Shown: positions 40,556 through 64,000, counted from the first letter of the stretch. The stretch is DNA of 64,000 bases from an uncultured Rhodospirillaceae bacterium (GCA_964499275.1 CAZCKO010000001.1:14739-78738), one strand, 5' to 3'. Translations and numbers: made by a program. Notes: generated from the letters alone by a model not told the origin.

Positions 40556-40557
40556 GA

Positions 40558-42917: not shown

Positions 42918-43057
42918 AGCCTCCGCTTCAGGGTAGCTTTACTACCCGCCTATTAATTCATCATAACAAAATCAACCTGGCGGGACGCACCGCCAAATGC
43001 CCTTTAATTTTGTGCGATTATTTACTTAACGCAATGGCTAATTACGTTATACCTGTT

Positions 43058-43073
43058 ATAGTTATATACTTAT
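43058..43073 (+). promoter_or_regulatory. Quasi-palindromic ATAGTTATATACTTAT (T-N11-A-type) candidate LysR box in the divergent promoter region
   Basis: Imperfect dyad (12/16) within a TTATA-repeat tract 30–45 nt upstream of the LysR ATG. Confidence 0.3.
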
Positions 43074-43102
43074 ATGTTAAAGACAAAGATGATATAAAGA
43101 AA

Positions 43103-44020: not shown

Positions 44021-44026
44021 GCATGT

Positions 44027-44806: not shown

Positions 44807-44884
44807 CTATGAAGTTATAATCAACTATAAAAGAAAATTACTCAGACTAAATAGCGGTGCAAACTAACTATAAATTAACCTAGA

Positions 44885-46096: not shown

Positions 46097-47340
46097 AACA
46101 CTTCTTGCATGTTGGCCAACTGGACTAACGTGGTGCACAGCACCTTGGTACCTGCCAAAATGTCACTTTGATTGGTATATTCATTGATGTTGTGACTGAC
46201 CCCATCACATGACGGTACAAAGATCATACCCGAAGGACAAAAATAACTCATTTGACGCGCATCATGACCAGCACCTGAGAAAATACGTCGGCAGGGTAGA
46301 TCAAGATGTTTCGCCTCCTCTTCAATTGCCGAGATAACCTTCTCATTAAATTTAATGGTATCCGCCTCCGCAATACACCAAACATCTGATGAGCATTTCG
46401 ATACAGTTTGGGCCACTAAGTCTCTGACTTTTTTTTCACAATCCAATAGAACTTCGGAATCCGGGTGTCGTAAATCTATAGAAAAAACAACTTCGCTAGC
46501 AACAACTGAAGGCACATTTGGTTCTATTGTTAGCATACCGACTGTAAAACGAATGTCTTCAATAGTTGAAAACACTGTGTACATTTTTTCTATTGTTCTT
46601 GACGCCTCTTCAATCGCATCTTTTCTTAGATCGTAGGGTGTCGTCCCGGCATGGGCTTCATCTCCAATAATCTTCACCCGCATACGCCTGACCCCCTGTA
46701 TTCCGGTAACGGCACCAATGGGGATGCATTCTTTTTCTAGAATGGGACCTTGCTCAATATGTGCCTCTATAAAACAGTACACATCTCTTCCGAATGGAAC
46801 ATTTTTGATGCCCGGTAAATGATCTTGAAGTTTCAGGAGTTCATCCCCGACTGATACCCCTGTTTTATCCTTCACAGCCTTTATCTCTGATATTGGTTTG
46901 ACACCAACATATGCCTCGGATCCCATCATGCCAGGAGCAAACCGGGACCCCTCTTCGTTCATCCAGGCCACTATTTCGATACTTCTTCTGTGTTCTGTCC
47001 TTGAATTGATAATTGCCCGGGCCGCTTCTAGGCCTGCAAGGATACCAAAAGCACCATCAAACTTCCCACCGGTCGGCTGAGTATCAAGGTGCGAACCAGT
47101 CATAACTACCGGCAGATCGGGCTCATTCCCCTCAATGCGAAAAAAAAGGTTACCCACATCGTCGGCAGTTATTTTAAGCCCATATGCTTCTGCCCATGAT
47201 ATACAAAGATCACGTGCCGCAAATTCTTCCGAGGTAAGGGCTTGCCGATTAACCCCCCCGCCTTCAATGCCGCCAATTTCAGCTAGCTCCATCAAATTCG
47301 ACCAGAGCCTTTCAGATTCAATATATTCCGCAAGAGCCAT
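46093..47340 (-). CDS. M20-family Zn-hydrolase of the N-carbamoyl-L-amino-acid hydrolase / allantoate amidohydrolase / beta-ureidopropionase group
   Basis: 415 aa. GSHLDTQPTGGKFDGAFGILAGLEA signature of the AmaB/AllC family. Confidence 0.75.
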   Translation of the reverse strand: MALAEYIESERLWSNLMELAEIGGIEGGGVNRQALTSEEFAARDLCISWAEAYGLKITADDVGNLFFRIEGNEPDLPVVMTGSHLDTQPTGGKFDGAFGILAGLEAARAIINSRTEHRRSIEIVAWMNEEGSRFAPGMMGSEAYVGVKPISEIKAVKDKTGVSVGDELLKLQDHLPGIKNVPFGRDVYCFIEAHIEQGPILEKECIPIGAVTGIQGVRRMRVKIIGDEAHAGTTPYDLRKDAIEEASRTIEKMYTVFSTIEDIRFTVGMLTIEPNVPSVVASEVVFSIDLRHPDSEVLLDCEKKVRDLVAQTVSKCSSDVWCIAEADTIKFNEKVISAIEEEAKHLDLPCRRIFSGAGHDARQMSYFCPSGMIFVPSCDGVSHNINEYTNQSDILAGTKVLCTTLVQLANMQEVL

Positions 47341-47349
47341 GTGCCACTC

Positions 47350-48237
47350 TTAAATTTTTTTCAGTCCAGAAAGCAAAGCCGACTTTCCCAAGTAATCTTT
47401 CTTAGCTGACCAGTTACCCGACTCTGCCATAGCCAAAAACTCAGATAACATTAAATTGGTCAAAGTCGGCTCCTCTAAGTTGACGGTGTGCCCAGTGCGT
47501 GGCATCACACATAACCCTGACATTGGTAAGGTCCGTTTGAGATAAATTGACGGCTCAATGCACCACTCGTCTTCATCACCCACAATGATCAGGGCTGGGG
47601 CATTTACCTTAAGAATATCCTCTTCAAGGTCGTAAAGTGAAGGACGCTTTCGTTGTACACCTAGCATAGTCAGTGCAGCGCCTTGTTTCGAGTGACTGGC
47701 CAACCGGCCTTTGAATGCTTCCCATCCCTTGAAGTCTTTGGTTTTAAATTGTTGTCTAAATGCACCATTCGCATAAAGCTCGGCCATTTCCTCTGAACCA
47801 AGCTCAACGTATTTTTCAGCTAACATTTCTGCATCTTTGGCATATGCTTCCTGCTGGTCCTTGGGAGCGCCATAACCACATGAAATCAATGCTATAGATG
47901 AGGTTTTTTCTGGATACAAGATGGCAAAATGAAGGGCGGCAAAGCCTCCCATCGAACAGCCAATAATATGTGCCGATTTTAGTGAATACCCCTCAAGGAC
48001 TGAATTAATATCCTCAGCGGCAATTTTTTGGGAGTACAGTTCGGGATCCTCCGGTACATCTGATGGTGGATATCCGCGCGCATTGAACGTAATGCATTTG
48101 TATCGCCGCGAGAGAGCGGAAACTTGCATAGACCAGCTTTCAAGGTTATCAGCGAATTCATGAACAAATATGATCGCAGCGCCTTCTCCATACGCTTCCG
48201 TATAAAGCTTGGCACCATTAGCTTCAATTAAAGTCAT
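47350..48237 (-). CDS. Alpha/beta hydrolase
   Basis: GCSMGG nucleophile elbow. 295 aa. Confidence 0.65.
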   Translation of the reverse strand: MTLIEANGAKLYTEAYGEGAAIIFVHEFADNLESWSMQVSALSRRYKCITFNARGYPPSDVPEDPELYSQKIAAEDINSVLEGYSLKSAHIIGCSMGGFAALHFAILYPEKTSSIALISCGYGAPKDQQEAYAKDAEMLAEKYVELGSEEMAELYANGAFRQQFKTKDFKGWEAFKGRLASHSKQGAALTMLGVQRKRPSLYDLEEDILKVNAPALIIVGDEDEWCIEPSIYLKRTLPMSGLCVMPRTGHTVNLEEPTLTNLMLSEFLAMAESGNWSAKKDYLGKSALLSGLKKI

Positions 48238-48239
48238 AT

Positions 48240-49028
48240 TTAAATAGCCTTTACTTGTCCGCCATCTATATCGAAAGAAGCGCCGGTTATATAAGTCGCC
48301 CTATTAGAAGCTAAAAACACAACCAATGCTGCAAGCTCATCTGGCTCGCCATAACGCTTCAAAACTGTTTCCGCGGTCAATATAGCGGTTGCTTCTTTAA
48401 CAGAAATTTGATCCTCTTTCGCTTTTTCCTCTGCAAGATAGATCATTCGATCCGTAGCGAATGGGCCAGGGTTTATCACGTTACACAAAATACCATCTGG
48501 GGCACCTTCTTCTGAAAGTGCCTTACTAATATTTTGAAGAGCAGCGTTAGAAAATCCTGCAGTTATGGCATGAGCATGAGGCTGCCGGCCATGCGTTCCC
48601 GCCATAAAAAGGATACGCCCGCCATTACCTACCGACTGCATTACCCCAAATGCCTCACGTGCCAACCTGATTTGGGCGAATACTTTGGTCTCGGCAGCCT
48701 CGCGCCACATATCGTCTGTCATCTCTAGAAATGGTGCGGTAGCCGCACCGGCTGAATTTGCAATCAAGACGTCAAGTCCATGTTTCCTTGAAACCTCTTC
48801 AATCATGGAGATGGATTGTTCGGCTGATGTCACGTCGCATATGCAGCCTTCAACAACCCCGCAAGTTTCCGCATTCAAATTTTTAACTGCAAAATTGACC
48901 TTTTCCTCATTTCGCCCCGACAGCGTTACCGTTGCACCTTCCAACGCAAACATTCTCGCAATGGAATATCCCAAACCGCTACTAGCTGCACTGACGATGA
49001 CCGACTTTCCTTCAAGCCCCAATTCCAT
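48240..49028 (-). CDS. SDR-family NAD(P)-dependent oxidoreductase
   Basis: N-terminal SAASSGLG dinucleotide-binding motif. 262 aa. Confidence 0.75.
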   Translation of the reverse strand: MELGLEGKSVIVSAASSGLGYSIARMFALEGATVTLSGRNEEKVNFAVKNLNAETCGVVEGCICDVTSAEQSISMIEEVSRKHGLDVLIANSAGAATAPFLEMTDDMWREAAETKVFAQIRLAREAFGVMQSVGNGGRILFMAGTHGRQPHAHAITAGFSNAALQNISKALSEEGAPDGILCNVINPGPFATDRMIYLAEEKAKEDQISVKEATAILTAETVLKRYGEPDELAALVVFLASNRATYITGASFDIDGGQVKAI

Positions 49029-49061
49029 TATTAGCCTCGCTATAAGATATTTTAAATTATT

Positions 49062-50195
49062 TCACGAATGATTACCTTTGCTCGCACATTTTTCAAAGAC
49101 TTTCGGAAACTCTGAACAAAATAAACCAGCCCATTCCTCTGGTACTGTGGTCGAAATTTTAAGAAACAAATTTTTCAAAGTGTCACTATGATAGTCAGAG
49201 GTTCTAATAAAAAATCCCCGGTTGAGTAATTCGTCTGCAATAGAATTTGCAGAAACCCCGCTATCTTGGCAATCAACAGCTAAAAAATTCCCATTAGAAG
49301 GATATACAACGGGGCGTAGCCCCTCTAAGGGCTCTAGCATTCTATTAATCGATTCCTGATTTCGCCTTTGTACCAGGTTAACACCCTCCATCCACTCATC
49401 CTTTACCTCGAATGCCGCCACCGCAGCCAACTGCCCGAGAATATTTGAACCGAGGATATTGGGCTGATCTTCCATTAAATGCGTAAATATTTTCTTATCC
49501 GCTACTACAGCGCCAGTGCGCAGACCAGCGATACCAAGCCATTTACTGAAGCTATATGTCGTGATGGTCCTCTCAGGATAAAGATCTCGGACCAAAAAAT
49601 GATTAAAGGCGAAGTCGCGATAAGTGCAATCGTGTACAATTACAGCTCCGAATTTTCTTGCAGCATCTACGATTTCCGTCAACTCATCCAACCCATAGCA
49701 AGAACCAAGTGGATTAAGTGGGTCAATCAAATAAATAATAGCGTTATCACTAATGGAGAGTTGTTCTTCAAGTTCTCGGGCATCAATCTTATAATCCTTA
49801 CCCTCATCATAAATAGGTAACCGGCAGATATCAGCACCTTCATTCTGACTAAATTTCAGCGGCCATACCCAAGTGGGATCACTTGTAATCAGCGTTGTCG
49901 TCTTATTACTCATTCTCTTGCAAACGAGATACAAACCCTCGACTGCACCATCTGTTATAAGCACCTGTGTCTCCCCGGATGCCTCCGGCCCTATTAAATC
50001 GAGTAATATCTGTTCACGGAGTTTCTCTAAACCTTGCGGCGGCGCATAAAGGTTATAACTCTGGTCGTCGATACCTTTTATAAGCGCCTCTTTTACTAAC
50101 GGGTGGGCAGGCAAATGGTTGGTGTTTTGTCCCATCCAAAGCATGTCTTGGCTTCTATGCAGGGCATCAAAAGTTCGTGTGCTTTGAATTGTCAT
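49062..50195 (-). CDS. PLP-dependent aminotransferase, class I/II
   Basis: SFSKWLGIAGLRTG with the Schiff-base Lys. 377 aa. Confidence 0.75.
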   Translation of the reverse strand: MTIQSTRTFDALHRSQDMLWMGQNTNHLPAHPLVKEALIKGIDDQSYNLYAPPQGLEKLREQILLDLIGPEASGETQVLITDGAVEGLYLVCKRMSNKTTTLITSDPTWVWPLKFSQNEGADICRLPIYDEGKDYKIDARELEEQLSISDNAIIYLIDPLNPLGSCYGLDELTEIVDAARKFGAVIVHDCTYRDFAFNHFLVRDLYPERTITTYSFSKWLGIAGLRTGAVVADKKIFTHLMEDQPNILGSNILGQLAAVAAFEVKDEWMEGVNLVQRRNQESINRMLEPLEGLRPVVYPSNGNFLAVDCQDSGVSANSIADELLNRGFFIRTSDYHSDTLKNLFLKISTTVPEEWAGLFCSEFPKVFEKCASKGNHS

Positions 50196-50215
50196 ATCAG
50201 AAAAATGAGGCCTAC

Positions 50216-51016
50216 CTAAGACGCGTCTTTACCGGAAAATATTCGTAAGACGATAAATTCAACACAAACGAGACCAGTGAACAAAATCAATCCCACTATT
50301 AACAAAAAGGTTATTGCCGACAGTGCCAGTGCTGTCTCCAGACCAGAGGCCGCAAAGCTTATGAGATAACCTATTCCAGATTGGGCCGTTACAAACTCAC
50401 CAACGACTACTCCAATGATTGTGAGCGTCAGTCCAATTCTCAGTCCAGTAAAAATCATCGGAAGAGCAAAAGGCAATCTCACAGAGAAGAATGTTTGCCA
50501 TCTACCCGCTGTAAGTGATTCACAAAGCTTTAAATATGTAACACCAGTATTGAGCAACCCAGTTGATGATGCCACTACAATAGGGAAAAGAGCGAGACAC
50601 ATCCCGTAGGCTAGTCTCGCCTCTGTGCCAACTCCAAACCATAGAATGAATAGAGGGGCCAGTGCGATGGTGGGTATAAGGTTAAATAACACAAGATTAG
50701 GAAAAATCGCCCGACGCGCAATATAGGAGACTGTAATTAAACAGGATAAAGATAAACCCAAAATGGTAGAAAAAATAAAAGCCGCAAAACACTCATAAAG
50801 TGTGCCCAAAGCATGCCCCCACATAAATTTGCGCTGAGCTATGAAGAGGTCAACCACATCACCGGGTGGGGGTAATATGATTGTCGGTACAAATTTTTGA
50901 TCAACAAGGTGCTGCCACAAAAACACAATCACAGCAAAAAATGCGACCGGGAGAATGATCTGCCGGAAATTTGTGAAGATGTTCAGTCGCAACTTGTTTA
51001 AAATTAAATCGAGCAT
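50216..51016 (-). CDS. ABC transporter permease, NitT/TauT (SsuC-like) family
   Basis: 266 aa, six TM, binding-protein-dependent permease EAA region. Confidence 0.75.
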   Translation of the reverse strand: MLDLILNKLRLNIFTNFRQIILPVAFFAVIVFLWQHLVDQKFVPTIILPPPGDVVDLFIAQRKFMWGHALGTLYECFAAFIFSTILGLSLSCLITVSYIARRAIFPNLVLFNLIPTIALAPLFILWFGVGTEARLAYGMCLALFPIVVASSTGLLNTGVTYLKLCESLTAGRWQTFFSVRLPFALPMIFTGLRIGLTLTIIGVVVGEFVTAQSGIGYLISFAASGLETALALSAITFLLIVGLILFTGLVCVEFIVLRIFSGKDAS

Positions 51017-51050
51017 TCTTTCCTAAATTTCATTCCATAAGAGACACTGT

Positions 51051-51836
51051 TTATTGATTGCCAAACCAAACCTGTAAGCGGTAGCTCGCAAAAGCGATCA
51101 AGGAATAGAAAAAGAGACCCACGAAACACAGGAATAAAACCGTGGCTATCATTAAATCCGTTTGTAATTGGCCAAACGCTACCAAAATCAAAAATCCAAG
51201 TCCTTGTGAGGAAGTAATAAACTCACCCACAATTACTCCAATCATTGCCATGGTTATACTCATCTTCATTGCACTTATCAGATAGGGTAATGCAAAAGGA
51301 AATCTAACCAGAAACAAGGTTTGCAATTTTGACGCCGTTAAAGACTCACAAAGCTTTAAAAGACTGGGGTCGGTATTCTTTAGACCAGCGGTCATACTTA
51401 TAATTATCGGGAAAATACTTATAAAAACAGCAAAACCCAGGCGAGACTCAAATTCGATACCGAGCCAAAGAACAAACATGGGAGCCCACGCGATCTTGGG
51501 AACAATCTGAAAACCAACAATATTTGGATAGAGAGCATCCTTGGCCCACGGCGACCAAGTCATCAAAAGCGCTAAAAACAGACCAATAATACTTGCTAGG
51601 AGAAAACCGCCGAGCGCCACCGACGCCGTCGGTAAAATGTTCTTCGTTATAAGATCCCAATTATCAAAAATGGCAACTACAACCGCGCTTGGCCGTGGCA
51701 AAATTGATTTAGGATAATTTGTATACCAGGTAAAAAATTCCCAAATCCCAATCACTGACAAAAACAATAGAACCGGGAGGAAACTATCACGTACTCCGGT
51801 CAAAAACGAATTCTTAGGATTTGGCAAGGCACTCAT
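51051..51836 (-). CDS. ABC transporter permease, NitT/TauT (SsuC-like) family
   Basis: 261 aa, paralogous to the adjacent permease. Confidence 0.75.
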   Translation of the reverse strand: MSALPNPKNSFLTGVRDSFLPVLLFLSVIGIWEFFTWYTNYPKSILPRPSAVVVAIFDNWDLITKNILPTASVALGGFLLASIIGLFLALLMTWSPWAKDALYPNIVGFQIVPKIAWAPMFVLWLGIEFESRLGFAVFISIFPIIISMTAGLKNTDPSLLKLCESLTASKLQTLFLVRFPFALPYLISAMKMSITMAMIGVIVGEFITSSQGLGFLILVAFGQLQTDLMIATVLFLCFVGLFFYSLIAFASYRLQVWFGNQ

Positions 51837-51856
51837 CTACTAATTTTCTTTGATTG

Positions 51857-52669
51857 CTAATGCTGGGCGTCAATTTTCCCACGCAAATGGGCACAAATCT
51901 TGTTAAATTCTGGCGTTTCGACAAGAGAAAAATCTCTCGGGCGCTCAAATGGTACCACCAGATTTTCAATAATAGTTCCAGGGCGAGCACTCATCACCAA
52001 AACGCGATCAGACAGAAAAACTGCTTCTCTTATACTATGCGTTACAAATAGTCCGGTCTTTTTAAAGTCTTGCCATAGATCCATCAGAACCTGATTCATT
52101 TCGTCTCGAGTTATCGCGTCAAGCGCGCTGAATGGTTCGTCCATTAAAAGCAAAGAAGGATCATAGAGTAGGGCTCGACATATTGCGACCCGTTGTTTCA
52201 TTCCACCCGACAATTGTGCAGGTTTTTTGTCCAGAAATTGCTCGAGACCAACACGGCTCAAAAGATCTTCAGCGATTGGTAAATATTTTTTTCGGTCTCT
52301 ATTAAGAATCTTCACCGGAAAAAGAACATTTTCCAAGGATGTCTTCCAAGGCAGCAGGGTAGGGTCCTGGAACATCAATCCGATATCTTCTCGTGGCTTG
52401 ACCATCGGTTGACCACCGATTGTTACATTCCCTTTGGTGGGGTGTTCTAGGCCCGCAATCATCATCAATAGAGTGCTTTTTCCACACCCGCTAGGGCCCA
52501 GTAAAGAGACAAACTCCCCTTCCCCAACACCACAATCTATATGTTCAAGCGCTATCGTTTGATTGGGGCCAGGGTTAAATATTTTTTGAACGCCGTCCGC
52601 GTGCACATAACTATCCGACTGCAAAGCGGGTTCTCTTATAGCAAAAGACTCAGACATATTTAAACTCAA
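51857..52669 (-). CDS. ABC transporter ATP-binding protein, NitT/TauT family
   Basis: GPSGCGKST, LSGGMKQRVAICRAL, LLMDEPFSALD. Confidence 0.85.
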   Translation of the reverse strand: MSLNMSESFAIREPALQSDSYVHADGVQKIFNPGPNQTIALEHIDCGVGEGEFVSLLGPSGCGKSTLLMMIAGLEHPTKGNVTIGGQPMVKPREDIGLMFQDPTLLPWKTSLENVLFPVKILNRDRKKYLPIAEDLLSRVGLEQFLDKKPAQLSGGMKQRVAICRALLYDPSLLLMDEPFSALDAITRDEMNQVLMDLWQDFKKTGLFVTHSIREAVFLSDRVLVMSARPGTIIENLVVPFERPRDFSLVETPEFNKICAHLRGKIDAQH

Positions 52670-52723
52670 CGTAAAGGTTTGCAGAAAAATAGTTTAGTGA
52701 ACACGCGGACAACATCATAGGTT

Positions 52724-53842
52724 TTAACCGAGAGCCTTCGCCCCTGGTGCACCCAACTTCTTGATAAGCGCGAGTTCTTTGTCACTCACCTTGTATTTAT
52801 TAGTAACCATTTCATCCAAGTGCATGATTTTGCTCAAATCAGGAGCAGGGTCACCAGGCTTAGCAAGGTTTTTCACAACGAGGTCAACCATCTTTTGATA
52901 CTTAGCGGGATCAACACTACCCAGACCCGTCGTGGCCATTTCTTTTGTGGTATTGATGTAAGTGTAAAGGTCAATCTCGATGTCAAACTGCTTTCGCTTT
53001 GAAGCCGTAATCCCAGCTTCCGGCACTGCCTTGAAAAAGATCTCTTTAGCCTCGTCATGGTTGGTCATGTAGTACTTGATCCCCTCCATGATGGCTCCTG
53101 TCACATCCGCACACATTGCCTTTTCTTTTGCGTACATTTCAGGCTGGGTAATTATCATGTAGCCATAGAACGGCATATCGAAATCTTTATAAAGGAAAGT
53201 ACCAACGTCATACCCCTTGTTAACAACATCGGGGACAACTGATGAAGCAAAACAGGAAATAAAGTCGACTTTTTTCTGAAGCATAACACCGGTTCTGATT
53301 TTATTATCAACCTGAACGACATTAACTTTAGACCAATCAAACCCAGCATTTTGTCCAAAGATTGGCAAAAATGGATATTCTCCTGATTTAACAACAGAGC
53401 CACATTTTTTACCCTCAAGGTCCTTGGGTGTTTTGATGCCAGAAGATTTTAGAAAAACAATCCCCATCGCTGAGCTGTAGCTAGCGCAAGCTAGATAGGC
53501 TAACTTCATTCCTCTGACGGTCTGCAAAGACGCCGTCGGTGCAGATGAAATTCCGAAATTAAATTTGCCTTGCCCAATCGCTTGCGCAGATGCAGTGGAG
53601 CCGAAGCCGCGGCTTATTTTGACATCTAAACCAAGCTTCTTAAAAAAGCCCTTTCCAGCGGTGGTATAAATCCAGGCACTACCACCATTTGGAATCCACG
53701 ACTGCGTAAAGGTAATACTTCTCATTTTTTTTGCAAACGCCATTGGCGCGATACCACTGGCCAAAATGGATGCCATCCCCACACCGGTACCCCTAACAAA
53801 CTTCCGGCGACTGACACCTTTTAAAATTTTCTTCTTATCCAT
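52724..53842 (-). CDS. NMT1/THI5-like (NitT/TauT family) ABC substrate-binding protein with a twin-arginine signal
   Basis: N-terminal SRRKFVRG TAT motif followed by a hydrophobic stretch ending AFA. Periplasmic binding fold. Confidence 0.7.
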   Translation of the reverse strand: MDKKKILKGVSRRKFVRGTGVGMASILASGIAPMAFAKKMRSITFTQSWIPNGGSAWIYTTAGKGFFKKLGLDVKISRGFGSTASAQAIGQGKFNFGISSAPTASLQTVRGMKLAYLACASYSSAMGIVFLKSSGIKTPKDLEGKKCGSVVKSGEYPFLPIFGQNAGFDWSKVNVVQVDNKIRTGVMLQKKVDFISCFASSVVPDVVNKGYDVGTFLYKDFDMPFYGYMIITQPEMYAKEKAMCADVTGAIMEGIKYYMTNHDEAKEIFFKAVPEAGITASKRKQFDIEIDLYTYINTTKEMATTGLGSVDPAKYQKMVDLVVKNLAKPGDPAPDLSKIMHLDEMVTNKYKVSDKELALIKKLGAPGAKALG

Positions 53843-55676: not shown

Positions 55677-56108
55677 CTAATCTCCTGTCTCTGGGAGTGG
55701 CCCATCTTTTCTAGCACCACCCCAACCTGTATGTGTAATATCGAAAATAGTACCATTGGGATCTAGAAACTTCATTTCATAGAAAACGCTATTGCCTTCC
55801 ATCTCACCCATAAACCACTGACCACCATTCTCTTCTATTTCTCTTTCACATTTTTCTACATCATCCACCCAAAATCCAAAGTGATGTACACCAAACCAAT
55901 CTTTTGTCTTACCCTCACCCATTGGACGGTCATCTTTATAACGCAACAAGGCCACGTTTATTGTACCGTCCGTAAGATAAATACCATCTGCCATTGGCGC
56001 CGACACCGACGTAACTTTTTCCATCCCAAATACAGACATATAAAATTCAGCAGTTTTTTCTGGGTCCTCAACGGATAAGGCCAGATGACGAAGTTTACCA
56101 CTTGCCAT
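55677..56108 (-). CDS. VOC-family (glyoxalase/bleomycin-resistance fold) protein
   Basis: 143-aa single VOC module. Confidence 0.6.
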   Translation of the reverse strand: MASGKLRHLALSVEDPEKTAEFYMSVFGMEKVTSVSAPMADGIYLTDGTINVALLRYKDDRPMGEGKTKDWFGVHHFGFWVDDVEKCEREIEENGGQWFMGEMEGNSVFYEMKFLDPNGTIFDITHTGWGGARKDGPLPETGD

Positions 56109-57238
56109 TAATTCGGTCCCTGTATGTGAAACATTTCAGCGGCATGGTCCCAAAGGACGCGCTGTTTAATTGCAGGATCTACACCCTCAAACATCTTGTT
56201 AATCGGAATTGAAACATCAGGCCAGGTCCCTTGAGGATGTGGGTAGTCGGAACCCCAAATAGCAACATCACCGAGATTACACCAATCGAGCTTCATCAAT
56301 TCACAACCAACATAATCTTCCTCAAAGGTAAATCCACAATTCCGTTTGGCATATTCGCTTGGAAGCATGGAAAGCGGAGCTGAGGGATCAGGAGCACGTT
56401 CCTCGACTTGGCGATCACACCATTCAATAGCAAAAGGCACCCAGCCTATTCTGCACTCCGAAAACAATACCTTTAGATTGGGATTACGTTCAAATGCACC
56501 ACAAAAGACGAGTTGTGAGAATGTATTGCAAAGATTAAAGGGTGCCGTTGCAAGAAAGGCTATTTGTGCACCGCGGTGGTATGGAGGCAACGGGGAGTCT
56601 GCCGCTCCGCCAATATGTATGCAAAGGGGCACACTTGCTTCGCTAGCCATAGACCAAAGTGGTTCCCACACTTCATCATAGACGGGCTTTGCAACATCAA
56701 ATGGCGGAAATTCAACTGCCTTTGCGCCTGCCTTAATCATGCGGCTGAATTCCCTAATGCACTCATCTGGATACTTGGTCGGCAAGGCGGGTAGGATAAA
56801 AATCCTATCAGGTTCAATTTTATTCATCTCCATCGCATAGTCATTAAATGCGCGGTAGACTGAAAATAACAACTCTGGGTCGCTGACATTCCATTTCCGC
56901 ACACTCGCGAAAATTATGCTCGACCACACTTTGGATTGATCCATATGATCCAGGAGTATTTTAGGGTCAGCTGGTGGAAGCGCCCCGTCAGGTAAATCAA
57001 CCCCATGGTCACGAAAGGGTTTTAAAAACTGAGCACTATTTGAACCGTCGGCCGATTTATCCCAAAGTTTACCTTCCCAAGTCCATTGAGAGCCATTTTC
57101 ACCTTCGACAACTCGAGGGCCAATTTCTTTATATTTTTTCGGCAATCGATCCTGCCACAGGTTTTTAGGGCACCAATGCGTATCAAGATGATTATCCGCC
57201 GAAATATAATGGTAATCACTCATCGAAAGCGTCTCCAA
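56108..57238 (-). CDS. Amidohydrolase-2 family protein (ACMSD/LigW-like decarboxylase or hydrolase)
   Basis: N-terminal ISADNHLDTH metal-binding motif. 376 aa. Confidence 0.7.
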   Translation of the reverse strand: METLSMSDYHYISADNHLDTHWCPKNLWQDRLPKKYKEIGPRVVEGENGSQWTWEGKLWDKSADGSNSAQFLKPFRDHGVDLPDGALPPADPKILLDHMDQSKVWSSIIFASVRKWNVSDPELLFSVYRAFNDYAMEMNKIEPDRIFILPALPTKYPDECIREFSRMIKAGAKAVEFPPFDVAKPVYDEVWEPLWSMASEASVPLCIHIGGAADSPLPPYHRGAQIAFLATAPFNLCNTFSQLVFCGAFERNPNLKVLFSECRIGWVPFAIEWCDRQVEERAPDPSAPLSMLPSEYAKRNCGFTFEEDYVGCELMKLDWCNLGDVAIWGSDYPHPQGTWPDVSIPINKMFEGVDPAIKQRVLWDHAAEMFHIQGPN

Positions 57239-57311
57239 GTTATTGCAAGGTTATTTGTTAAAGGTCGCTTAATGGTATTGTTACGTCAAGCTGGGTGACC
57301 CAGATTACATA

Positions 57312-58187
57312 TTAATTTTTGGCGGTGGTATATTTTTCTCGTCGAGTAATGATCAGCACTGCAAAAAAGATAAATCCTGCGCCAACCCATGTCTCTATAT
57401 CCGAAATTTCACCGAAAAGCATCCAACCAAAGGCAGCCGCTATAGGTAACCGCATAAAATCAACAGGTGCCAACAAACTCGCATCTGCCACCTTCATGCC
57501 TCGTGCTAGGAAAATATGAGCAAACGTTCCAAACACTCCTACCCCTAAAATCCAACCCAGCTGATGCCATTCTGGCCATATCCATTGGGGAATAGCGAGG
57601 ATCAATGTAAAGGGAATTAAAGTGAGATTTAAATAAAAGATCAGCACAGCGCCACTGATTTTTAGAGCAACATGTTTTGTAATGAGCTGGACTGATGCGT
57701 TCGACATCGCAGAGACTAAAATACAAAGGATGAGAGGGTTAAACGGGATATAGCCCGGTCGTATAATTATCAGCGCCCCCACAAAACCTAAAACGACTGC
57801 ACCCCAACGCCACCTATCGACATTTTCTCTTAGCACTAACGCCGCCCCTATCACCACAAAAAGAGGATGCGTCAACTGCACTGCCGTGACATCTGAAATA
57901 AGCATACCAGTAAGGGCCCAGAACCAACATAAGATACCAACAACCGAGATCAAACTGCGCCACAACACCAACTGCCATTGTTCAGGGGCCAATACTTCCG
58001 GCTCAAATCGGATAGTGCGCAGCAACCACGGCAGCAGGATAATCAACCCCATGAAGCCGCGAAAAAAAACTAGTTGGGGGGCAGAAAACCCCTCAAAACT
58101 GAGGTACCTAACCGCTGCCATCATCGCACACATAGAAGTGGTTTGTGCTAACATCCAGAGCAACCCACGGAAGTTGTGGGGTATCAT
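57312..58187 (-). CDS. DMT-superfamily (EamA) transporter
   Basis: 291 aa, 10 TM, duplicated EamA domains. Confidence 0.75.
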   Translation of the reverse strand: MIPHNFRGLLWMLAQTTSMCAMMAAVRYLSFEGFSAPQLVFFRGFMGLIILLPWLLRTIRFEPEVLAPEQWQLVLWRSLISVVGILCWFWALTGMLISDVTAVQLTHPLFVVIGAALVLRENVDRWRWGAVVLGFVGALIIIRPGYIPFNPLILCILVSAMSNASVQLITKHVALKISGAVLIFYLNLTLIPFTLILAIPQWIWPEWHQLGWILGVGVFGTFAHIFLARGMKVADASLLAPVDFMRLPIAAAFGWMLFGEISDIETWVGAGFIFFAVLIITRREKYTTAKN

Positions 58188-59053
58188 TATGCTTTGACTC
58201 GTTGTTCTATCCGCCTAGCCCACCAAGTATTATACCAGGCAGCAAGAAATATGACGGAAGCCCCCACGTAAGTCCAAAAATCTGAGACATCATTGAATAA
58301 AAAATAAGCTCCAAATGAACAGAGAACCAGGCGAAGGAAATCAATTGGCGCAAGTGCACTAGCATCTGCATGGCGCATTGCTTTCAATAAGCATGTGTGT
58401 GCTGTCGTGCCGGTGATACCCAGGACCATAATCCACCCCAGATGTTCCCAACCAGGCATTGACCAATGGAATGGTAAAGCTATTGCAGCACCTGGCAAAA
58501 TCAACAAGTTCATATAAAAGGCCGTTGCGTTAGGCGTTTCAGTACCAGACATGAACTTAGTTATGACATGATTGGCACCATAAAGAGCGCCGGAAAGCAA
58601 GACGAAATAATGTGCCCAGTCGATAATCTGAAACCCGGGCCGCAAAACAATTAACACGCCGGCGAATCCGATAATTGTGGACGTCCAACGCACCGCATCC
58701 ACTCTCTCGCGTAGAAAGATAGCGGCAAAAATAATCATGAAAAGTGGCAAAGTGAAGTGTAGAGCTATTGCATCGCCAAGGGGTAATAATCCAATCGCCG
58801 CGAACCACAAAATCATTCCAAAACCCATAAAACTTGCCCGGATAAGATGCTGGCTAAACTTGTTCGTTTTCAGTGCTTCCGTGCCTTCCTTTACGATCCA
58901 GGGAACGAAAAAAAGAACACCAAACAAGCAACGAATGAAAACAATTTGTACTGCCGACATATCGGGTGACAGAGCCCTAACGCTTATGCTCAGCGCAACA
59001 AATGAAAAGGTCGTCAATAACATCCAAAATGCGCCGAGATAAATAGGGGGCAA
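58187..59053 (-). CDS. DMT-superfamily (EamA) transporter
   Basis: 288 aa, a tandem paralog overlapping the downstream gene by 1 nt. Confidence 0.75.
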   Translation of the reverse strand: MPPIYLGAFWMLLTTFSFVALSISVRALSPDMSAVQIVFIRCLFGVLFFVPWIVKEGTEALKTNKFSQHLIRASFMGFGMILWFAAIGLLPLGDAIALHFTLPLFMIIFAAIFLRERVDAVRWTSTIIGFAGVLIVLRPGFQIIDWAHYFVLLSGALYGANHVITKFMSGTETPNATAFYMNLLILPGAAIALPFHWSMPGWEHLGWIMVLGITGTTAHTCLLKAMRHADASALAPIDFLRLVLCSFGAYFLFNDVSDFWTYVGASVIFLAAWYNTWWARRIEQRVKA

Positions 59054-59190
59054 GGTTTTGAGACTTTCTGTTAAAATTTTTTATAGGACATACACTAAAG
59101 AGTTTTCATCGAACTATCGACCCCACGGCTTTACCGGAATTGTAAGACATGGAATGCTATCACTAGGAAGAATCAGGAAGAGCTCTGAAC

Positions 59191-60159
59191 ATGTCCGGTT
59201 ACCGTATTGATGTGCACCATCACGTCCTGCCTGAATTTTATAAAGAAGCCCAACGTGCAGTTGGTATATCTGGCACCGCGTATCGCGGATTTCCTGACTG
59301 GACGCCTGAGAAATCGATAGCATTAATGGATATTCAGAAAATAAAGACCTCTATTTTATCGTTTACATCGCCGGGAATTTACTTCGGGGATTTAGCGAAG
59401 ACGCGTGACCTCGCATGCCAGTGCAACGACTACCTCGCTCAACTGACAATCGACCACCCAAACCGTTTTGGGGGTTTCGCGCTCCTGCCGCTACCGGATA
59501 TTGACGCGTCTCTCAGGGAACTTGAACGTGCGCTAGATGAACTGAAGCTAGACGGCCTCACGTTGCTGACATCGGTTGATGAAAAATATATTGGGCATCC
59601 AGACTTTGAACCAATTTATGAAGAAATAAACCGCCGTAAGGCCGTCACATTTATCCATCCCTGCTACCCACCTGGTTCCGAGGCAAAGGGTTGGGATATT
59701 CCTCGAATGATTATTGATTATCCATTCGAAACTACTCGGGTGGCTACAAACCTGATTTTCAATGGTGTTATCGAAAGAATGCCAGAAATTCCATTTATTC
59801 TTTCGCATTCCGGGGGGACTCTGCCATTCCTGGCCCACAGGATTGCTATTTTCGACAAAAAAACTAAATTCCAAGATATGTATCCCAAGGGCGCCTTGGC
59901 CTACATGAAATTATTTTACTTCGACACAGCCCTCTCAGGAGAAGGGGCTATTCTTAATGGGTTATCTAGCATTGTCGACGAGACACGCATTCTTTTTGGA
60001 TCAGACTACCCATATGTCTCCGAGGATGTAGTTGATAAGGAAACAGCTGGTTTAGACTCCTACGAGGGCTTCAACATTAACGCAATGACGGCAATAAACT
60101 ATAAAAATGCCGAAAAATTATTTCCCCGACTAATACACCCATCTGGAGATAACGAATAA
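59191..60159 (+). CDS. Amidohydrolase-2 family protein (ACMSD-like)
   Basis: MSGYRIDVHHHVLP N-terminal His-His motif. 322 aa. Confidence 0.75.
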   Translation: MSGYRIDVHHHVLPEFYKEAQRAVGISGTAYRGFPDWTPEKSIALMDIQKIKTSILSFTSPGIYFGDLAKTRDLACQCNDYLAQLTIDHPNRFGGFALLPLPDIDASLRELERALDELKLDGLTLLTSVDEKYIGHPDFEPIYEEINRRKAVTFIHPCYPPGSEAKGWDIPRMIIDYPFETTRVATNLIFNGVIERMPEIPFILSHSGGTLPFLAHRIAIFDKKTKFQDMYPKGALAYMKLFYFDTALSGEGAILNGLSSIVDETRILFGSDYPYVSEDVVDKETAGLDSYEGFNINAMTAINYKNAEKLFPRLIHPSGDNE

Positions 60160-60275
60160 CTGATTCAGATTGCCTGCCCTCGACGATTGATAAAGCTAAA
60201 TGTTAGATTTAATGAGGAAATAATTATCATTTTACGGCCTTAGTATCCGTCAAAAGGTCAAAAAGGGAGGAAACA

Positions 60276-61301
60276 GTGCCAACAATTGACTCAGATGCAC
60301 ATGTCATAGAATCCGATAAGACATGGAGCTACCTTCCAGATGACGAGAAACATTACGCCCCAATTGTTCTCCATAAGAGCGGTGAAAAACCAACACCCAG
60401 TAACCAATACTGGCTAAGCGGTGATAAAATCCAGCCTAAAGATAATGCTGACACCTTGTCGATGGATGAGACCTCTCGCGAAATGGGCAGTGTTGACGCA
60501 CGACTTAAACATATGGATGAGCTTAGTATTGATCTTCAAATTCTATATCCAACAATATTTTTGGTTCCCTGCGCAAATGACCCCTTACAACAAGCGGCTC
60601 AATATCGAGCGTATAATCGTTGGCTCGCTGACATTTGGAAATTAGCTGAAGGACGGCTTCGTTGGGCCGCTTGTGTCCCCACTTGGTCGATGCAGTTGGT
60701 GCGAGACGAACTCGAGTTCGCAAAGGAACATGGTGCATGTGCAATATTCATTCGCCCATATGAATGTGACAGGTACGTGGGTGATAACTATTTTGACCCC
60801 CTATTTAGGGCTGCCGGGGAATTAGATCTGGCGATAGCATTTCATTCTGCTAACGCCAGTTACCAAAACAACATCTTCCATGAACGCCATAACTTTGGCC
60901 GTTTTAAAATGGCGATGGTCTCACAGTTTCACTATCTTTTGGAGAACGAAATCCCACAAAAATTCCCTAATGTTCGCTGGGCATTTATTGAAGCTGCGGC
61001 CTCTTGGTTACCATACGCACTTCAAGATGTCGAAAGCCGATTATCCCGCAAAGGCAAGAAACTTCAACATAGCCCGCTAAAAGACAATAACATATGGGTC
61101 ACATTGGAAATGGCTGATGATATTCCATATCTCATAGATCGAGTGGGCGATGATAACTTCTTGATTGGCACAGATTATGGACATACGGATACCTCAGCGC
61201 AAATAGAGGCCCTCCGAATGTTGAGCGAAGACCCTAAAATACAGGCGAGGAGTGTTGACAAAATTTTAGGGGCCAACCCAACAAAGCTTTACCAATTATA
61301 A
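60276..61301 (+). CDS. Amidohydrolase-2 family protein
   Basis: MPTIDSDAHVIE N-terminal motif. 341 aa. Confidence 0.7.
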   Translation: MPTIDSDAHVIESDKTWSYLPDDEKHYAPIVLHKSGEKPTPSNQYWLSGDKIQPKDNADTLSMDETSREMGSVDARLKHMDELSIDLQILYPTIFLVPCANDPLQQAAQYRAYNRWLADIWKLAEGRLRWAACVPTWSMQLVRDELEFAKEHGACAIFIRPYECDRYVGDNYFDPLFRAAGELDLAIAFHSANASYQNNIFHERHNFGRFKMAMVSQFHYLLENEIPQKFPNVRWAFIEAAASWLPYALQDVESRLSRKGKKLQHSPLKDNNIWVTLEMADDIPYLIDRVGDDNFLIGTDYGHTDTSAQIEALRMLSEDPKIQARSVDKILGANPTKLYQL

Positions 61302-61391
61302 ATCGGTTCTTGTTTTGCCTTCACCGAAGTCCGCAAGGCCCATAACACTTTACGCTTAAGATTAACGATGACCTTATAAGTGAGAAATACT

Positions 61392-62360
61392 ATGAAAATT
61401 GTCGTGTATGGACCTGATAAACGTACTGGCGTTCTTAACGGAGATTTGATTATTGATATCGGGGGAGCAATTGCAAAACAAAACAATTATGCAAAAGGAG
61501 AATTATGTAATCTGGAAACACTGATAGAAGGTGGAAAGGCTGCGCTCGATGAAGTCCAAAAGGCTGTCGATAATTTAGGGGAAGCAGGCGATGAGATTAT
61601 CTTTCCGGCGGATAACATATTCCTTCATGCCCCCCGGACCCAATCTGGGCGTATTGCTTGTGCTGGGGGAAACTTTGCAGAACACGCTCTTTCTATGGCA
61701 CAGCGCCGTGTCGAACGCGGTGAAGATAACCCTATAAAAGGTGACCCCCGTAACTATGTTCGTGACAGAGGTTTTTGGGGTTTTTGGAAAGTGGGGCGTG
61801 AAAGTTTAGGACACGATGCAACCCTGCCATTTCCTTCAAGAGCGACCTACCTCGATTATGAGGGTGAGGTCGCTGTGGTTCTCGGAAAAACCGGTAAGAA
61901 CCTAAAGGAAGAAAATTTAAACAATTTTGTGTGGGGCGTCACACTTCTCGGTGATTGGAGTATCCGAATGTCGCCAGAACGGGGACCGATGAATTTTGCC
62001 ATGCAAAAAAATTTCGATAAAAGTTGTTCGATTGGTCCCTGTATTTTAGTTGGCGACATAGATTGCATGGAGATTGATCTTGAAACCCGGGTTAACGGTT
62101 CCGTACGCCAGCAATTTCGATCTGGAGATATGGCCTTTTCGTATGGTGAATATTTGGAATATTTAACGCGAGATTTTACCTTATTCCCGGGCGATATAAT
62201 CAGCGGCGGAACTGGTGCAGGCACTGCGGCAGATTCGTCTGGAACTGGGGCTGATGGCAAGCCCTTACGCGAGAGGTTTCTAAAACCCGGAGATATCGTT
62301 GAAATTTCTTCGCCACAAGTCGGTACACTTCGCACAGAAATTACGGCCAGTGAAATATAG
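61392..62360 (+). CDS. Fumarylacetoacetate hydrolase (FAH)-family protein
   Basis: FAH fold with the metal/substrate motifs YEGEVAVVLGKTG and GTGAGT. Start at the ATG at 61392. The ORF track starts at a GTG at 61380. Confidence 0.7.
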   Translation: MKIVVYGPDKRTGVLNGDLIIDIGGAIAKQNNYAKGELCNLETLIEGGKAALDEVQKAVDNLGEAGDEIIFPADNIFLHAPRTQSGRIACAGGNFAEHALSMAQRRVERGEDNPIKGDPRNYVRDRGFWGFWKVGRESLGHDATLPFPSRATYLDYEGEVAVVLGKTGKNLKEENLNNFVWGVTLLGDWSIRMSPERGPMNFAMQKNFDKSCSIGPCILVGDIDCMEIDLETRVNGSVRQQFRSGDMAFSYGEYLEYLTRDFTLFPGDIISGGTGAGTAADSSGTGADGKPLRERFLKPGDIVEISSPQVGTLRTEITASEI

Positions 62361-62398
62361 TTACCCAAAGGGATTGAACCAGGACTAGTGACTTCAAA

Positions 62399-63550
62399 AT
62401 GAAAATAGCAGACCAAGTAATAAATATTTTAAACGATCTAATAAAGATACCGTCGAGTTTTCCGCCTGGGAATACAGAGGAAATCTCGTCCTATGCGGCC
62501 AAACGTTTGAAATCGGCTGGGTATCAAACAAAAATTTATACCCGCACCCCCCCCATCGATAACATCGTAGCCAAGATGGGCAGTGGCAAACCATCAATTG
62601 TGTTTAATGCCCATTCTGACACCATCGCCGTCGGCAATGAAAAAGAGTGGGTCACAGACCCCTTCGTGGCAACGATCACCGACGACTGCGTTTATGGTGT
62701 CGGCGCCGGTAATTGTAAGGGGTCAATGGCAGTACAGATTTGGCTCGCTGAGGAAATCTCTAGGCGCGGAGGACCAAAAACCGGCGAAGTTGTATTTACC
62801 TTCGTAGGAGATGAGGAAAATCTTGGTCCCGATGGTTTGTCCTATTTACGCAAAGCAGAATTCGTTCAACCCGACGTACTTATTTGTGGTGCCCAGACCC
62901 AATTGCAAGCCATTTTCGAGGAACGCGGGGTCATCTGGGTTGAGTTAATGACAAATGGTACTGGGGCCCACGCAGGCGAACCTGAAAACGGAGATAACGC
63001 CATAAATCGAATGGTTCGAATGATTAACCATATAGAGGAAAAACTGGTTCCGCGGATCGCGAAGCGTCGCCGGGGAGCACTTCGATCTACTATAAATATA
63101 GGCACAATTAACGGTGGAACTAACACAAATGCAGTTCCCAGCCAGTGTCGGATTGAAATTGATAGGCGTCTGCTGCCGGAGGAAACGATCAGCGACGCTG
63201 TTAATGAAATTCAAGAAATATTGTCAGCATCAAATGAACCTAGGAATACCTGGTCAATTAAATTGTTAACTGGCACCAAAGGGTTCGCATCACCGAACGA
63301 CGCGCCAAGCGTAAAAGCATTTCACACTGCAATTGCCAGCATCACCAATCAGCCTATCAGGGACGTTGTTGCTATTGGCGCGAGCGACGCACGCTACTTT
63401 GTAGATGATAATATAGTTGCCCTTACATTTGGACCGGGCCACGCCAAAGACGGTCACAAACCGAATGAGTTCGTGCCGGTAGATGAACTAGTAAAAGCGG
63501 CTCAGATTCAGCTTTCTGTTATTGAGGAGATGCTAGGACTTGATGATTAA
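62399..63550 (+). CDS. M20-family peptidase (ArgE/DapE-like deacylase)
   Basis: AHSDTIAVGNEKEW, GAGNCKG. 383 aa. Confidence 0.75.
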   Translation: MKIADQVINILNDLIKIPSSFPPGNTEEISSYAAKRLKSAGYQTKIYTRTPPIDNIVAKMGSGKPSIVFNAHSDTIAVGNEKEWVTDPFVATITDDCVYGVGAGNCKGSMAVQIWLAEEISRRGGPKTGEVVFTFVGDEENLGPDGLSYLRKAEFVQPDVLICGAQTQLQAIFEERGVIWVELMTNGTGAHAGEPENGDNAINRMVRMINHIEEKLVPRIAKRRRGALRSTINIGTINGGTNTNAVPSQCRIEIDRRLLPEETISDAVNEIQEILSASNEPRNTWSIKLLTGTKGFASPNDAPSVKAFHTAIASITNQPIRDVVAIGASDARYFVDDNIVALTFGPGHAKDGHKPNEFVPVDELVKAAQIQLSVIEEMLGLDD

Positions 63551-64000
63551 AATCGTGGCGATTTAATAATTTCATCCATAGATTTTTCTATATTTCTTGG
63601 CTCCGGATCTGGCATTTTTTGTTCCACCTTCTTGCCCCACCCTTCCTCACCGACCAAAATGCCTTCTTCAACAACTGGATAACCTCGCACAAGTGTCCAG
63701 TCCACAGTCGCTGTAGTCTCATAACCATGCCAAACGGTCATCTTGCTTTTTGAATGCAATTTTTCACGATCGATTATATTGCCCTGGTTAAGGTTTACGA
63801 TCGCTATATCAGCGTCGGAACCAGGTTGAATAACGCCCTTGTTAGGATAACAACCCCACGCATGGGCTGGCGCATGAGCCGACCATTGCACATATTGGTT
63901 TAGTGTCATCCTGCCAGCGTTGACTTGGGTCAGCATGACTGGCATTTGTGTCTCGACACCAGGAAAACCGCAGTCACATTCCCAAATATTTTCGGATTCC
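63547..64000 (-). CDS. Amidohydrolase-family protein, partial (N-terminus beyond the window edge)
   Basis: C-terminal amidohydrolase-like fragment (…GSDADIAIVNLN…) with its stop at 63547. The ORF stays open to the window end. Confidence 0.5.
   Translation of the reverse strand, partial: ESENIWECDCGFPGVETQMPVMLTQVNAGRMTLNQYVQWSAHAPAHAWGCYPNKGVIQPGSDADIAIVNLNQGNIIDREKLHSKSKMTVWHGYETTATVDWTLVRGYPVVEEGILVGEEGWGKKVEQKMPDPEPRNIEKSMDEIIKSPRF

Follow-up and report, generated by a model that had tools for sequence, protein, structure and literature searches.

A probable patchwork catabolic locus of an uncultured Rhodospirillaceae bacterium encodes three divergent PF04909 proteins, two of them placed by sequence and fold in the branch of amidohydrolase-related oxygenases

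In a 64,000-nt stretch of DNA from an uncultured Rhodospirillaceae bacterium (GCA_964499275.1 CAZCKO010000001.1:14739-78738; hereafter the window), the gene cluster at positions 55677-64000 includes three genes for proteins of the amidohydrolase-2 family PF04909, which we name AH1 (56108-57238, minus strand), AH2 (59191-60159, plus strand) and AH3 (60276-61301, plus strand). An earlier note on this DNA had described all three as paralogs of the ACMSD/LigW type and had taken their density to indicate a multi-step, non-oxidative pathway. The description holds for AH2; AH1 and AH3 instead fall, on sequence and fold comparison, in the branch of the amidohydrolase-related dinuclear oxygenases (AROs), outside the branch of LigW, IDCase, LigI and LigJ, and with two of the three so placed, in clades that separated deeply, the argument from paralog density is not supported. 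We favour, with confidence slightly better than even, the reading that this is a patchwork catabolic locus of two divergent units, with AH1 and AH3 in the ARO branch and with the mechanism proposed below.

ARO hallmarks in AH1 and AH3

AROs were defined recently (2023-2026) by Rittle and co-workers (PMC10811679; PMC13154177). Their hallmarks are an N-terminal D-x-H and a C-terminal loop D-x-P-H-x-[D/E], neither of them reported for any characterised PF04909 hydrolase or decarboxylase, and the published census of some 17,000 ARO sequences was filtered by the strict loop motif (PMC13154177). All three proteins of the window score well above the curated gathering cut-off by which Pfam families were called (26.4 bits for PF04909), at 67.5 bits for AH1, 106 bits for AH2 (4e-30, full length) and 60.8 bits for AH3, while a scan with NCBIfam models, each judged by its own cut-off, assigned none of them to a family. 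Their mutual similarity is slight: BLASTP aligned AH1 with AH3 at 21% identity and with AH2 at 20%, and gave nothing significant between AH2 and AH3. Judged by these sequence comparisons they are no recent paralogs; they represent deep, separate clades, which we take to be ancient lineages of different function. Only AH2 has the H-x-H motif, the corresponding residues being D15-N-H17 in AH1 and D7-A-H9 in AH3. The closest solved sequences for AH1 and AH3 are all AROs or ARO-like proteins (PtmU3, DitZ, SfbO, 8SM7-9, 4DZI and AibH), and such proteins also came out on top for both when confident AlphaFold2 (AF2) models were used in a fold search. Each of the two families stands one position off the loop motif, so that both would be excluded by the published ARO filter.

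The residues that indicate metal class, gamma1, gamma2 and gamma4, were read by the rules of Table 1 of PMC13154177. They are N16, F110 and P335 in AH1 and A8, Y91 and T304 in AH3, from which we infer that both fit the diiron, high-potential class. The low-potential (Mn-using) subclass has a hydrophobic gamma1, an aromatic gamma4 and an adjoining Rieske ferredoxin (PMC13154177); here gamma1 is N or A, gamma4 is P or T, and no small Rieske protein was found. The absence of a Rieske ferredoxin from the window cluster, the source contig and about 140 related loci is in line with the high-potential class, which usually lacks such a neighbour (PMC13154177).

AH3 and the G-type family

AH3 (341 aa) ends in the loop D-Y-G-H-T-D, in which G302 occupies the proline position of the ARO motif. 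Its best sequence matches in the PDB were 8SM9 (7e-12), 4DZI (4e-10), 8SM8 (8e-9), AibH1 (6e-8) and PtmU3 (3e-6), compared with 3e-4 for LigW, and its AF2 model (predicted local distance difference test score, pLDDT, 86.9) matched the folds of 4DZI, PtmU3, 8SM8 and DitZ best. Residues D7, H9, H190, E239, D300, G302, H303 and D305 are invariant among 30 relatives; H190 and E239 align with the mid-barrel His and bridging Glu ligand positions of 8SM9 and AibH, and AH3 retains all six or seven of the ARO ligand positions. The variant loop characterizes a large family, here called G-type: DYGHxD occurs in 118 of 120 homologs and D-x-H in 115 of 120, and 1,896 clusters (at 90% identity) match AH3 at E<=1e-10.

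AH3 thus shares its ligand positions with SfbO, the 'TruffO' proteins (8SM6-8SM9) and MAP2389c (4DZI), the group that supplies its top sequence matches and, in 4DZI, its top fold match. It differs from them in having Gly for the motif Pro throughout its family and in being only about 20% identical. 4DZI has been placed experimentally in the high-potential class (PMC13154177), and AH3 has none of the features of SfbO-type proteins (hydrophobic gamma1, aromatic gamma4 and adjoining Rieske ferredoxin). On this sequence evidence we have moderate confidence that AH3 is an O2-activating two-metal hydroxylase.

AH1 and the Q-type family

The open reading frame (ORF) of AH1 opens at a TTG (57238), and an ATG at 57223 that gives a protein of 371 aa (LETLS-MSDYHY...) is probably the true start, matching the gene calls of the source contig and of relatives. 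Sequence matches in the PDB were led by PtmU3 (5e-37), DitZ (2e-19) and SfbO (2e-12), compared with 8e-7 for ACMSD, and the AF2 model (pLDDT 91.8) had PtmU3, DitZ, 4DZI and SfbO as top fold matches. Seven residues, D15, H17, H208, E261, D331, H334 and Q336, are invariant among 27 relatives, with H208 and E261 aligning with the mid-barrel His and bridging Glu ligand positions of solved AROs. AH1 therefore keeps every ARO ligand position except the last acidic one, which in its loop, D-Y-P-H-P-Q, is an invariant Gln; in a residue-level alignment Q336 lies opposite a metal-binding Glu of PtmU3.

PtmU3, a hydroxylase of non-heme diiron type from Streptomyces platensis with an amidohydrolase-2 TIM barrel (6OMP), and the diterpenoid hydroxylase DitZ (PDB 8UYR) are the natural comparison, as the leading sequence and fold matches. 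The D-x-H, His, Glu and D-Y-P-H of this high-potential class align with AH1 residue for residue, and AH1 shares with it a hydrophilic gamma1, an aromatic gamma2, a non-aromatic gamma4 and the lack of a Rieske ferredoxin neighbour. The differences are the replacement of the Fe2-binding Glu313 of PtmU3 by the Gln of the AH1 family, an identity of only about 26%, and the genomic setting, which is a biosynthetic cluster for PtmU3 and DitZ and a catabolic or transport context with a VOC partner for AH1.

DxPHxQ occurs in 116 of 120 AH1 homologs, as does D-x-H (116/120), and this Q-type family comprises 292 clusters (at 90% identity) with E<=1e-10 to AH1. When 1.84 billion representatives at 50% identity were searched exhaustively, the Q-type clade was small, consisting of the nearest six or so representatives, and sat directly beside canonical DDH...DYPHPD proteins. 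The last loop position was acidic (D/E) in 80 of the 117 close representatives with a recognisable motif; the other 37 had V (10), Q (6), A (5), G (4), N (3) or, for the remainder, H, T, P, I or S. Non-acidic residues are thus common at this loop position in the AH1 branch, where loss of the acid seems to have recurred. A precedent exists in AibH1, a mononuclear, non-catalytic protein that keeps D, H, H, E, D and H and lacks the acid after D-x-P-H-x, a residue conserved only in binuclear members (Hibi et al., PMC7782822). By analogy AH1 might bind a single metal.

AH2, the classical member

AH2 (322 aa) is the ACMSD/LigW-type protein that the earlier note had recognised. Its PDB matches were 2f6k (3e-33), human ACMSD (5e-28), LigW (2e-24), gamma-resorcylate decarboxylase (2e-21) and IDCase (7e-20), and its translation contains H9-x-H11 (H9-H10-H11), the His of FIHPC, the His of LSHSGG and the Asp of GSDYPY, which we take to be the H-x-H of strand 1, the His of strand 5, the catalytic His of strand 6 and the Asp of strand 8 of ACMSD. 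With this set shared with its nearest solved relatives, AH2 reads from sequence as a classical mononuclear ACMSD/LigW-type enzyme, most likely performing non-oxidative decarboxylation or hydration. Two differences from the group should be noted: AH2 itself has no NCBIfam equivalog and its top structure match, 2F6K, is uncharacterised, while AH1 and AH3 lack H-x-H and match the group only at 1e-3 to 1e-6. Orthologs of AH2 at 65-80% identity are widespread in marine Alphaproteobacteria. Those at 66-74% adjoin AMP-ligases, an FAD monooxygenase, UbiD or an amidase, which are unrelated contexts, and among the orthologs elsewhere none was found with AH3, FAH or M20.

Organization of the locus

All nine ORFs and the families given in the earlier note were reproduced by our ORF listing and Pfam scan. 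The genes form two divergent units, EamA-EamA-AH1-VOC on the minus strand and AH2-AH3-FAH-M20 on the plus strand, separated by 137 bp (59054-59190) that presumably hold the promoters. The first gene of the minus-strand unit encodes an EamA/DMT transporter (58187-59053; PF00892 in two stretches, 6e-29; 288 aa by ORF, 278 aa in the source-contig gene call), followed by a second (57312-58187; 291 aa; PF00892 in two stretches, 6e-26, with TIGR00950 far below its cut-off), then AH1 and a VOC protein of the glyoxalase/dioxygenase fold (55677-56108; 143 aa; PF00903, 1.6e-13). On the plus strand, AH2 and AH3 are followed by an FAH-family protein (61380-62360; PF01557, 5e-43; 326 aa by ORF, 322 aa in the source-contig gene call) and a deacylase of the M20 ArgE/DapE family (62399-63550; 383 aa; PF01546 and PF07687). 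Spacing inside the units is short, and two gene pairs overlap by 1 nt: the start of VOC with the stop of AH1, and the stop of the first EamA gene with the start of the next. Convergent with M20, on the minus strand, is the 3' part of a gene for a cyclic amidohydrolase of the hydantoinase/allantoinase/dihydropyrimidinase type (63547-64000; PF01979 at 63547-63945), cut by the window end; this is the further amidohydrolase that had been seen at the window edge, and on the source contig it is complete at 473 aa (11149-12570, minus strand).

A profile of AH1 relatives run over the whole 64 kb found just these three PF04909 ORFs, within 5.2 kb. The clustering that had been pointed out is therefore real, with modest statistical weight (3 genes among about 60). 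The cluster has no regulator, as had also been remarked, and none occurs from 53.8 to 64 kb or over the 9 kb of source contig that follow; the nearest to the cluster is a LysR gene at 43010-44020. A promoter and terminator scan of 55.4-64 kb gave 14 promoter-like sites against 15.7 expected, hence no enrichment, and base composition gave no sign of foreign origin (GC 0.44-0.47 throughout the block). FolD and YggT flank the cluster on the left, and the ABC/NMT1-YggT-FolD stretch flanks it in relatives as well. Further upstream on the minus strand (36571-53842) lies another cluster, larger than this one and with an amide or N-heterocycle character, comprising an ABC transporter, two CN_hydrolases, a luciferase-like monooxygenase, the divergent LysR gene, an Amdase/Asp_Glu_race-family protein (maleate-isomerase or hydantoin-racemase type), a PF01979/PF07969 amidohydrolase, another M20, an alpha/beta hydrolase, a short-chain dehydrogenase/reductase (SDR), an aminotransferase and an NMT1-type ABC system.

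Conservation of the neighbourhood

Cluster proteins were compared against 80 loci from a scan of species-representative genomes for the AH1 family, and an AH3-family scan supplied 80 metagenome loci, with neighbours counted on 64. The first unit is the stable one: EamA-EamA-AH1-VOC-FolD is kept in all relatives at 86-91% identity, with the qualification that in relatives L011 and L012 a LigXa-like Rieske oxygenase (393 aa) replaces one EamA gene, at the position of 58187-59053. Linkage of AH1 to VOC reaches further still, a VOC protein 47-54% identical to that of the window adjoining AH1 homologs of just 41-45%, and overall it was seen in three divergent lineages and two gene orders. Judged by this gene-order record, AH1-VOC is a conserved two-gene module.

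The second unit behaves otherwise. Among the same 86-91% relatives the block AH2-AH3-FAH-M20...ECH is present or absent, and in several at 86-89% it is missing altogether, ArgG abutting the EamA genes. Even where AH2 and AH3 orthologs persist their surroundings vary: L011-L014 carry an extra 190-aa VOC-fold gene between the two (~4.1-5.1 kb in locus coordinates) that is lacking from the 116-bp AH2-AH3 gap of the window, and in the flank retrieved for these four relatives neither M20 nor the amidase was found. Between the AH3 and FAH orthologs of L012-L014, annotation by eye recognised a MerR-family regulator, cytochrome c-type proteins and a small Cys-rich protein. We read this insertion as metal-resistance-like and as marking an insertion hotspot, the site being plastic by comparison of these sequences. 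Neighbourhood conservation had been proposed as a check on the pathway idea, and by that check the locus is no conserved unit: AH2 orthologs occur without AH3, FAH and M20, and relatives of AH3 without VOC, FAH and M20. A single conserved pathway is, on these comparisons, not what the locus encodes, unit 2 being variable among such close relatives.

Elsewhere the AH3 family has other company. A second PF04909 gene lay within three genes in 16 of the 64 loci, AH2-like genes followed AH3-like genes in about 7 metagenome loci, and binding proteins of the TctC type, NMT1-like binding proteins and SDRs were also recorded; no Q-type, VOC, FAH or M20 neighbours were found in the AH3-family loci outside this lineage. 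A 66% AH3 homolog (L006/L007, 10001-11510) adjoins a GloA-like VOC gene amid purine-biosynthesis genes, and the metagenome-assembled genome (MAG) that carries it has an 87% AH1-VOC pair on another contig (L023). We judged that AH3-VOC pairing to be probably coincidental, the VOC protein being ordinary glyoxalase I-like and just 27% identical to that of the window.

Loci of the AH1 family in Chloroflexota differ in context from the alphaproteobacterial ones with their VOC, TctC and DUF2817 genes. In Chloroflexota/Dehalococcoidia loci (L047-L061, L085, L086 and similar) the AH1-family gene is followed by a protein of ~390 aa that ends in a RidA/L-PSP domain and is probably a tandem RidA fold, and the Chloroflexota loci often include a split thiamine diphosphate enzyme (TPP_enzyme_N, TPP_enzyme_C), an alpha/beta hydrolase and an amidase.

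Partner genes and the extension beyond the window

The best solved relatives of the VOC protein, a glyoxalase and methylmalonyl-CoA epimerase, are weak (1e-5); its residues H8, H75/H76, E111, D123 and H126 are conserved in at least 95% of 25 family members. The FAH-family protein, for which no NCBIfam equivalog scored above cut-off, has as best solved relative 8SKY (3e-27), the oxaloacetate decarboxylase YisK of B. subtilis, with maleylpyruvate hydrolase at just 5e-11. By sequence it is of the oxaloacetate-decarboxylase/acylpyruvate-hydrolase/HpcE type, and we propose that it would cleave a C-C bond of, or decarboxylate, a beta-diketo-acid or oxaloacetate-type substrate. The M20 protein passes the cut-off of TIGR01910 for the DapE-ArgE subfamily (255 bits vs 217.6) and has DapE enzymes as best solved relatives (2e-31); we propose it as a deacylase.

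An identical M20 protein is encoded on a 79.8-kb marine metagenome scaffold that extends past the window, the source contig (ENA ERZ23498701 scaffold_429), and the locus is syntenic in Rhodospirillaceae MAGs. On the source contig (11149-15954, minus strand, 0-4.5 kb past the window end) ECH, a Rieske oxygenase alpha subunit, a small subunit, an SDR and the cyclic amidase follow one another in that order, with ArgG and RlmN beyond ECH. The amidase is closest to allantoinase (3HM7, 3e-84) and L-hydantoinase (1GKR, 7e-80); an allantoinase/L-hydantoinase-like amidase convergent with an ArgE/DapE-type M20 gene might belong to a hydantoinase/carbamoylase pair, for which no specific carbamoylase model was matched. 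The Rieske alpha subunit resembles NagG, of salicylate 5-hydroxylase (5e-138), and TphA2 (1e-101), and the small subunit after it is SnoaL_4/Ring_hydroxyl_B-like; no ferredoxin, reductase or ring-cleavage dioxygenase was seen in this off-window unit. The alpha and beta-like subunits are a likeness to NagGH and TphA2A3, and the FAH-family gene a likeness to gentisate pathways. The locus differs from a gentisate/salicylate 5-hydroxylase pathway in lacking gentisate 1,2-dioxygenase (cupin), maleylpyruvate isomerase, ferredoxin and reductase, and in an FAH protein nearest to the YisK/HpcE type, not to fumarylpyruvate or maleylpyruvate hydrolases.

Aromatic or heterocyclic acid catabolism, as had been suggested, is plausible from the catabolic gene set (the Rieske pair, SDR, ECH and amidase), while the mechanistic premise on which it had been built does not hold. 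Nor does the VanA-like Rieske gene at 73-1119 help: the gene is real (PF19112), and the connection drawn from it to the cluster was rejected, since 55 kb with many unrelated genes lies between them and it adds nothing.

Weighing the explanations

Our preferred reading, the patchwork locus with two ARO-branch proteins, comes with the following proposed mechanism. In AH3 a carboxylate would bridge two metals, the site being predicted as diiron and high-potential, and the enzyme would hydroxylate a small acid at a C-H bond with O2 and reductant drawn from the cell. The products would then pass to AH2, FAH and M20, to be decarboxylated, cleaved and deacylated. AH1 and the VOC protein conserved beside it would make up a two-gene module of their own, together with the DMT transporters; AH1 would be an oxygenase like PtmU3 that has Gln as a ligand, or else would derive from that fold and bind one metal. 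The two units need not share one compound. Our best guess at the substrate, from context, is a carboxylated aromatic or N-heterocyclic acid, to which the surrounding Rieske oxygenases, VOC proteins and cyclic amidase are a loose pointer. Several points weigh against this reading. Neither AH1 nor AH3 has the strict motif D-x-P-H-x-[D/E], the oxygenase assignment of both is a prediction from sequence and fold, and the fold search for AH3 separates AROs weakly from the decarboxylases IDCase and ACMSD (E 1e-16 vs 1e-14). There is no reductase or ferredoxin gene nearby. AH1 lacks the acid that separates AibH2 from AibH1 and so, by that analogy, may not be an oxygenase at all. The roles of FAH, M20 and VOC are suggested by family membership, no NCBIfam equivalog having scored above cut-off, and co-transcription within each unit is suggested by gene spacing. 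All functions named here beyond family membership we infer from such comparisons.

Two other explanations we consider possible, while rating each clearly below the preferred one. The locus may have no common pathway at all, being a recombination hotspot that gathers unrelated catabolic genes, with the co-location of three PF04909 genes incidental; the presence or absence of unit 2 among close relatives, the insertions in these relatives (a MerR-type regulator with cytochrome c, the extra VOC, a Rieske gene in place of EamA) and the occurrence of the AH1, AH2 and AH3 families each in many unrelated contexts speak for this, whereas the short gaps and overlapping stop and start codons within units suggest operons, the AH1-VOC linkage holds across deep divergence, and the window's three genes do all lie in 5.2 kb. 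With about equal plausibility, AH1 could derive from the ARO fold yet bind one metal and do no redox chemistry (as a hydrolase, lyase or isomerase, for example), working with VOC and leaving AH3 as the only oxygenase. This would explain why Q336 is invariant where dinuclear members have Asp or Glu, given that the acid is confined to binuclear members (Hibi et al., PMC7782822), and it agrees with the 37 acid-free proteins among the 117 nearest 50%-identity representatives, which suggest repeated loss of the second site. Set against it, Gln could act as a metal ligand or form a hydrogen bond to water on the metal, as is the case for Asp in AibH2 and SfbO, the other second-site residues D331 and H334 are invariant, and the nearest relative, PtmU3, is a proven hydroxylase.

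An arrangement on the plan of AibH1H2, the 2-aminoisobutyrate hydroxylase of Rhodococcus wratislaviensis (6M1W, 8FUL-8FUO), with AH3 as catalytic two-metal subunit and AH1, or the adjacent AH2, as one-metal auxiliary, we regard as unlikely. AibH1H2 is an (alpha-beta)2 assembly of a mononuclear and a dinuclear PF04909 subunit; like the window it has two PF04909 proteins at one locus of which one lacks the acid, it acts catabolically on a small acid, and its AibH1 is among the matches of AH3. Candidate pairs do occur. One Dehalococcoidia lineage has a G-type gene (DYGHAD) and, ~150 bp downstream in the same direction, a Q-type gene (DYPHEQ), the pair being followed by the tandem RidA-like protein and an alpha/beta hydrolase; a G-type gene lies within 8 kb in 15 of the 80 AH1-seeded loci, and the second PF04909 genes of AH3-family loci, as well as the AH2-like genes behind AH3-like ones, could be read the same way. 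Yet the Dehalococcoidia pair loci are 92-99% identical to each other and count as one independent case, 59 of the 80 Q-type loci lack a further PF04909 gene in the vicinity, none of the 80 G-type-seeded loci has a Q-type gene, and close relatives keep AH1-VOC without AH3 at the locus. We therefore exclude, from these counts and this near-identity, an obligate Q-type/G-type heteromer as a general rule, the pairing not being conserved across either family. Whereas aibH1 and aibH2 are adjacent and accompanied by the Rieske ferredoxin AibG and the reductase AibF, AH1 and AH3 are in different, divergent units, within 3 kb of each other and with no ferredoxin or reductase; and AibH2 is Mn/Fe-dependent with a hydrophobic gamma1, unlike the diiron type predicted for AH1 and AH3. 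As an AibH1-like auxiliary of AH3, AH2 was rejected because its ACMSD catalytic set is complete and its orthologs occur on their own in other contexts, and it is retained only as a minor variant of the heteromer idea. Slightly less probable again is the scheme in which all three proteins are non-oxidative decarboxylases, hydratases or lactonases acting one after another on a single compound, carboxylated aromatic or pyrimidine-like. All three do match PF04909, AH2 is of that type, one source labels a relative of AH2 '6-methylsalicylate decarboxylase', and the context has an aromatic character (the NagG-like Rieske protein off the window, the LigXa-like Rieske protein and extra VOC in relatives). 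What decides for us is that AH1 and AH3 have D-x-H in place of H-x-H, with D-x-H and D-x-P-H unrepresented among characterised PF04909 hydrolases and decarboxylases (PMC13154177), that oxygenases lead their solved relatives by 8-30 orders of magnitude in E-value, and that the three genes are not found together outside close relatives.

Implications

The cluster as such is ordinary. What is new is the existence of two families that carry all the ARO hallmarks but for one motif position each and that stand outside the published ARO census. It is a tentative suggestion, which we would rate as rather doubtful, that the Q-type (D-x-P-H-x-Q, with a VOC partner) and G-type (D-Y-G-H-x-D) families each form a functional class not yet recognised in the superfamily of amidohydrolase-fold oxygenases, in which case AH1 would be a dinuclear oxygenase that has Gln as a ligand, or else a one-metal enzyme standing alone, O2-activating or a lyase, that acts with VOC. 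The Gln variant offers a natural test of the proposal, made from AibH1 and AibH2, that the last acid decides between one metal and two. For annotation the lesson is that many PF04909 genes close together do not by themselves stand for successive decarboxylations. If the suggestion is true, well over a thousand marine and soil oxygenase sequence clusters that were missed by the motif census would come in with the G-type clade, and, if these proteins are oxygenases, the 'amidohydrolase' labels of abundant marine Alphaproteobacteria and SAR202-type Chloroflexota would hide further C-H-oxidising enzymes.

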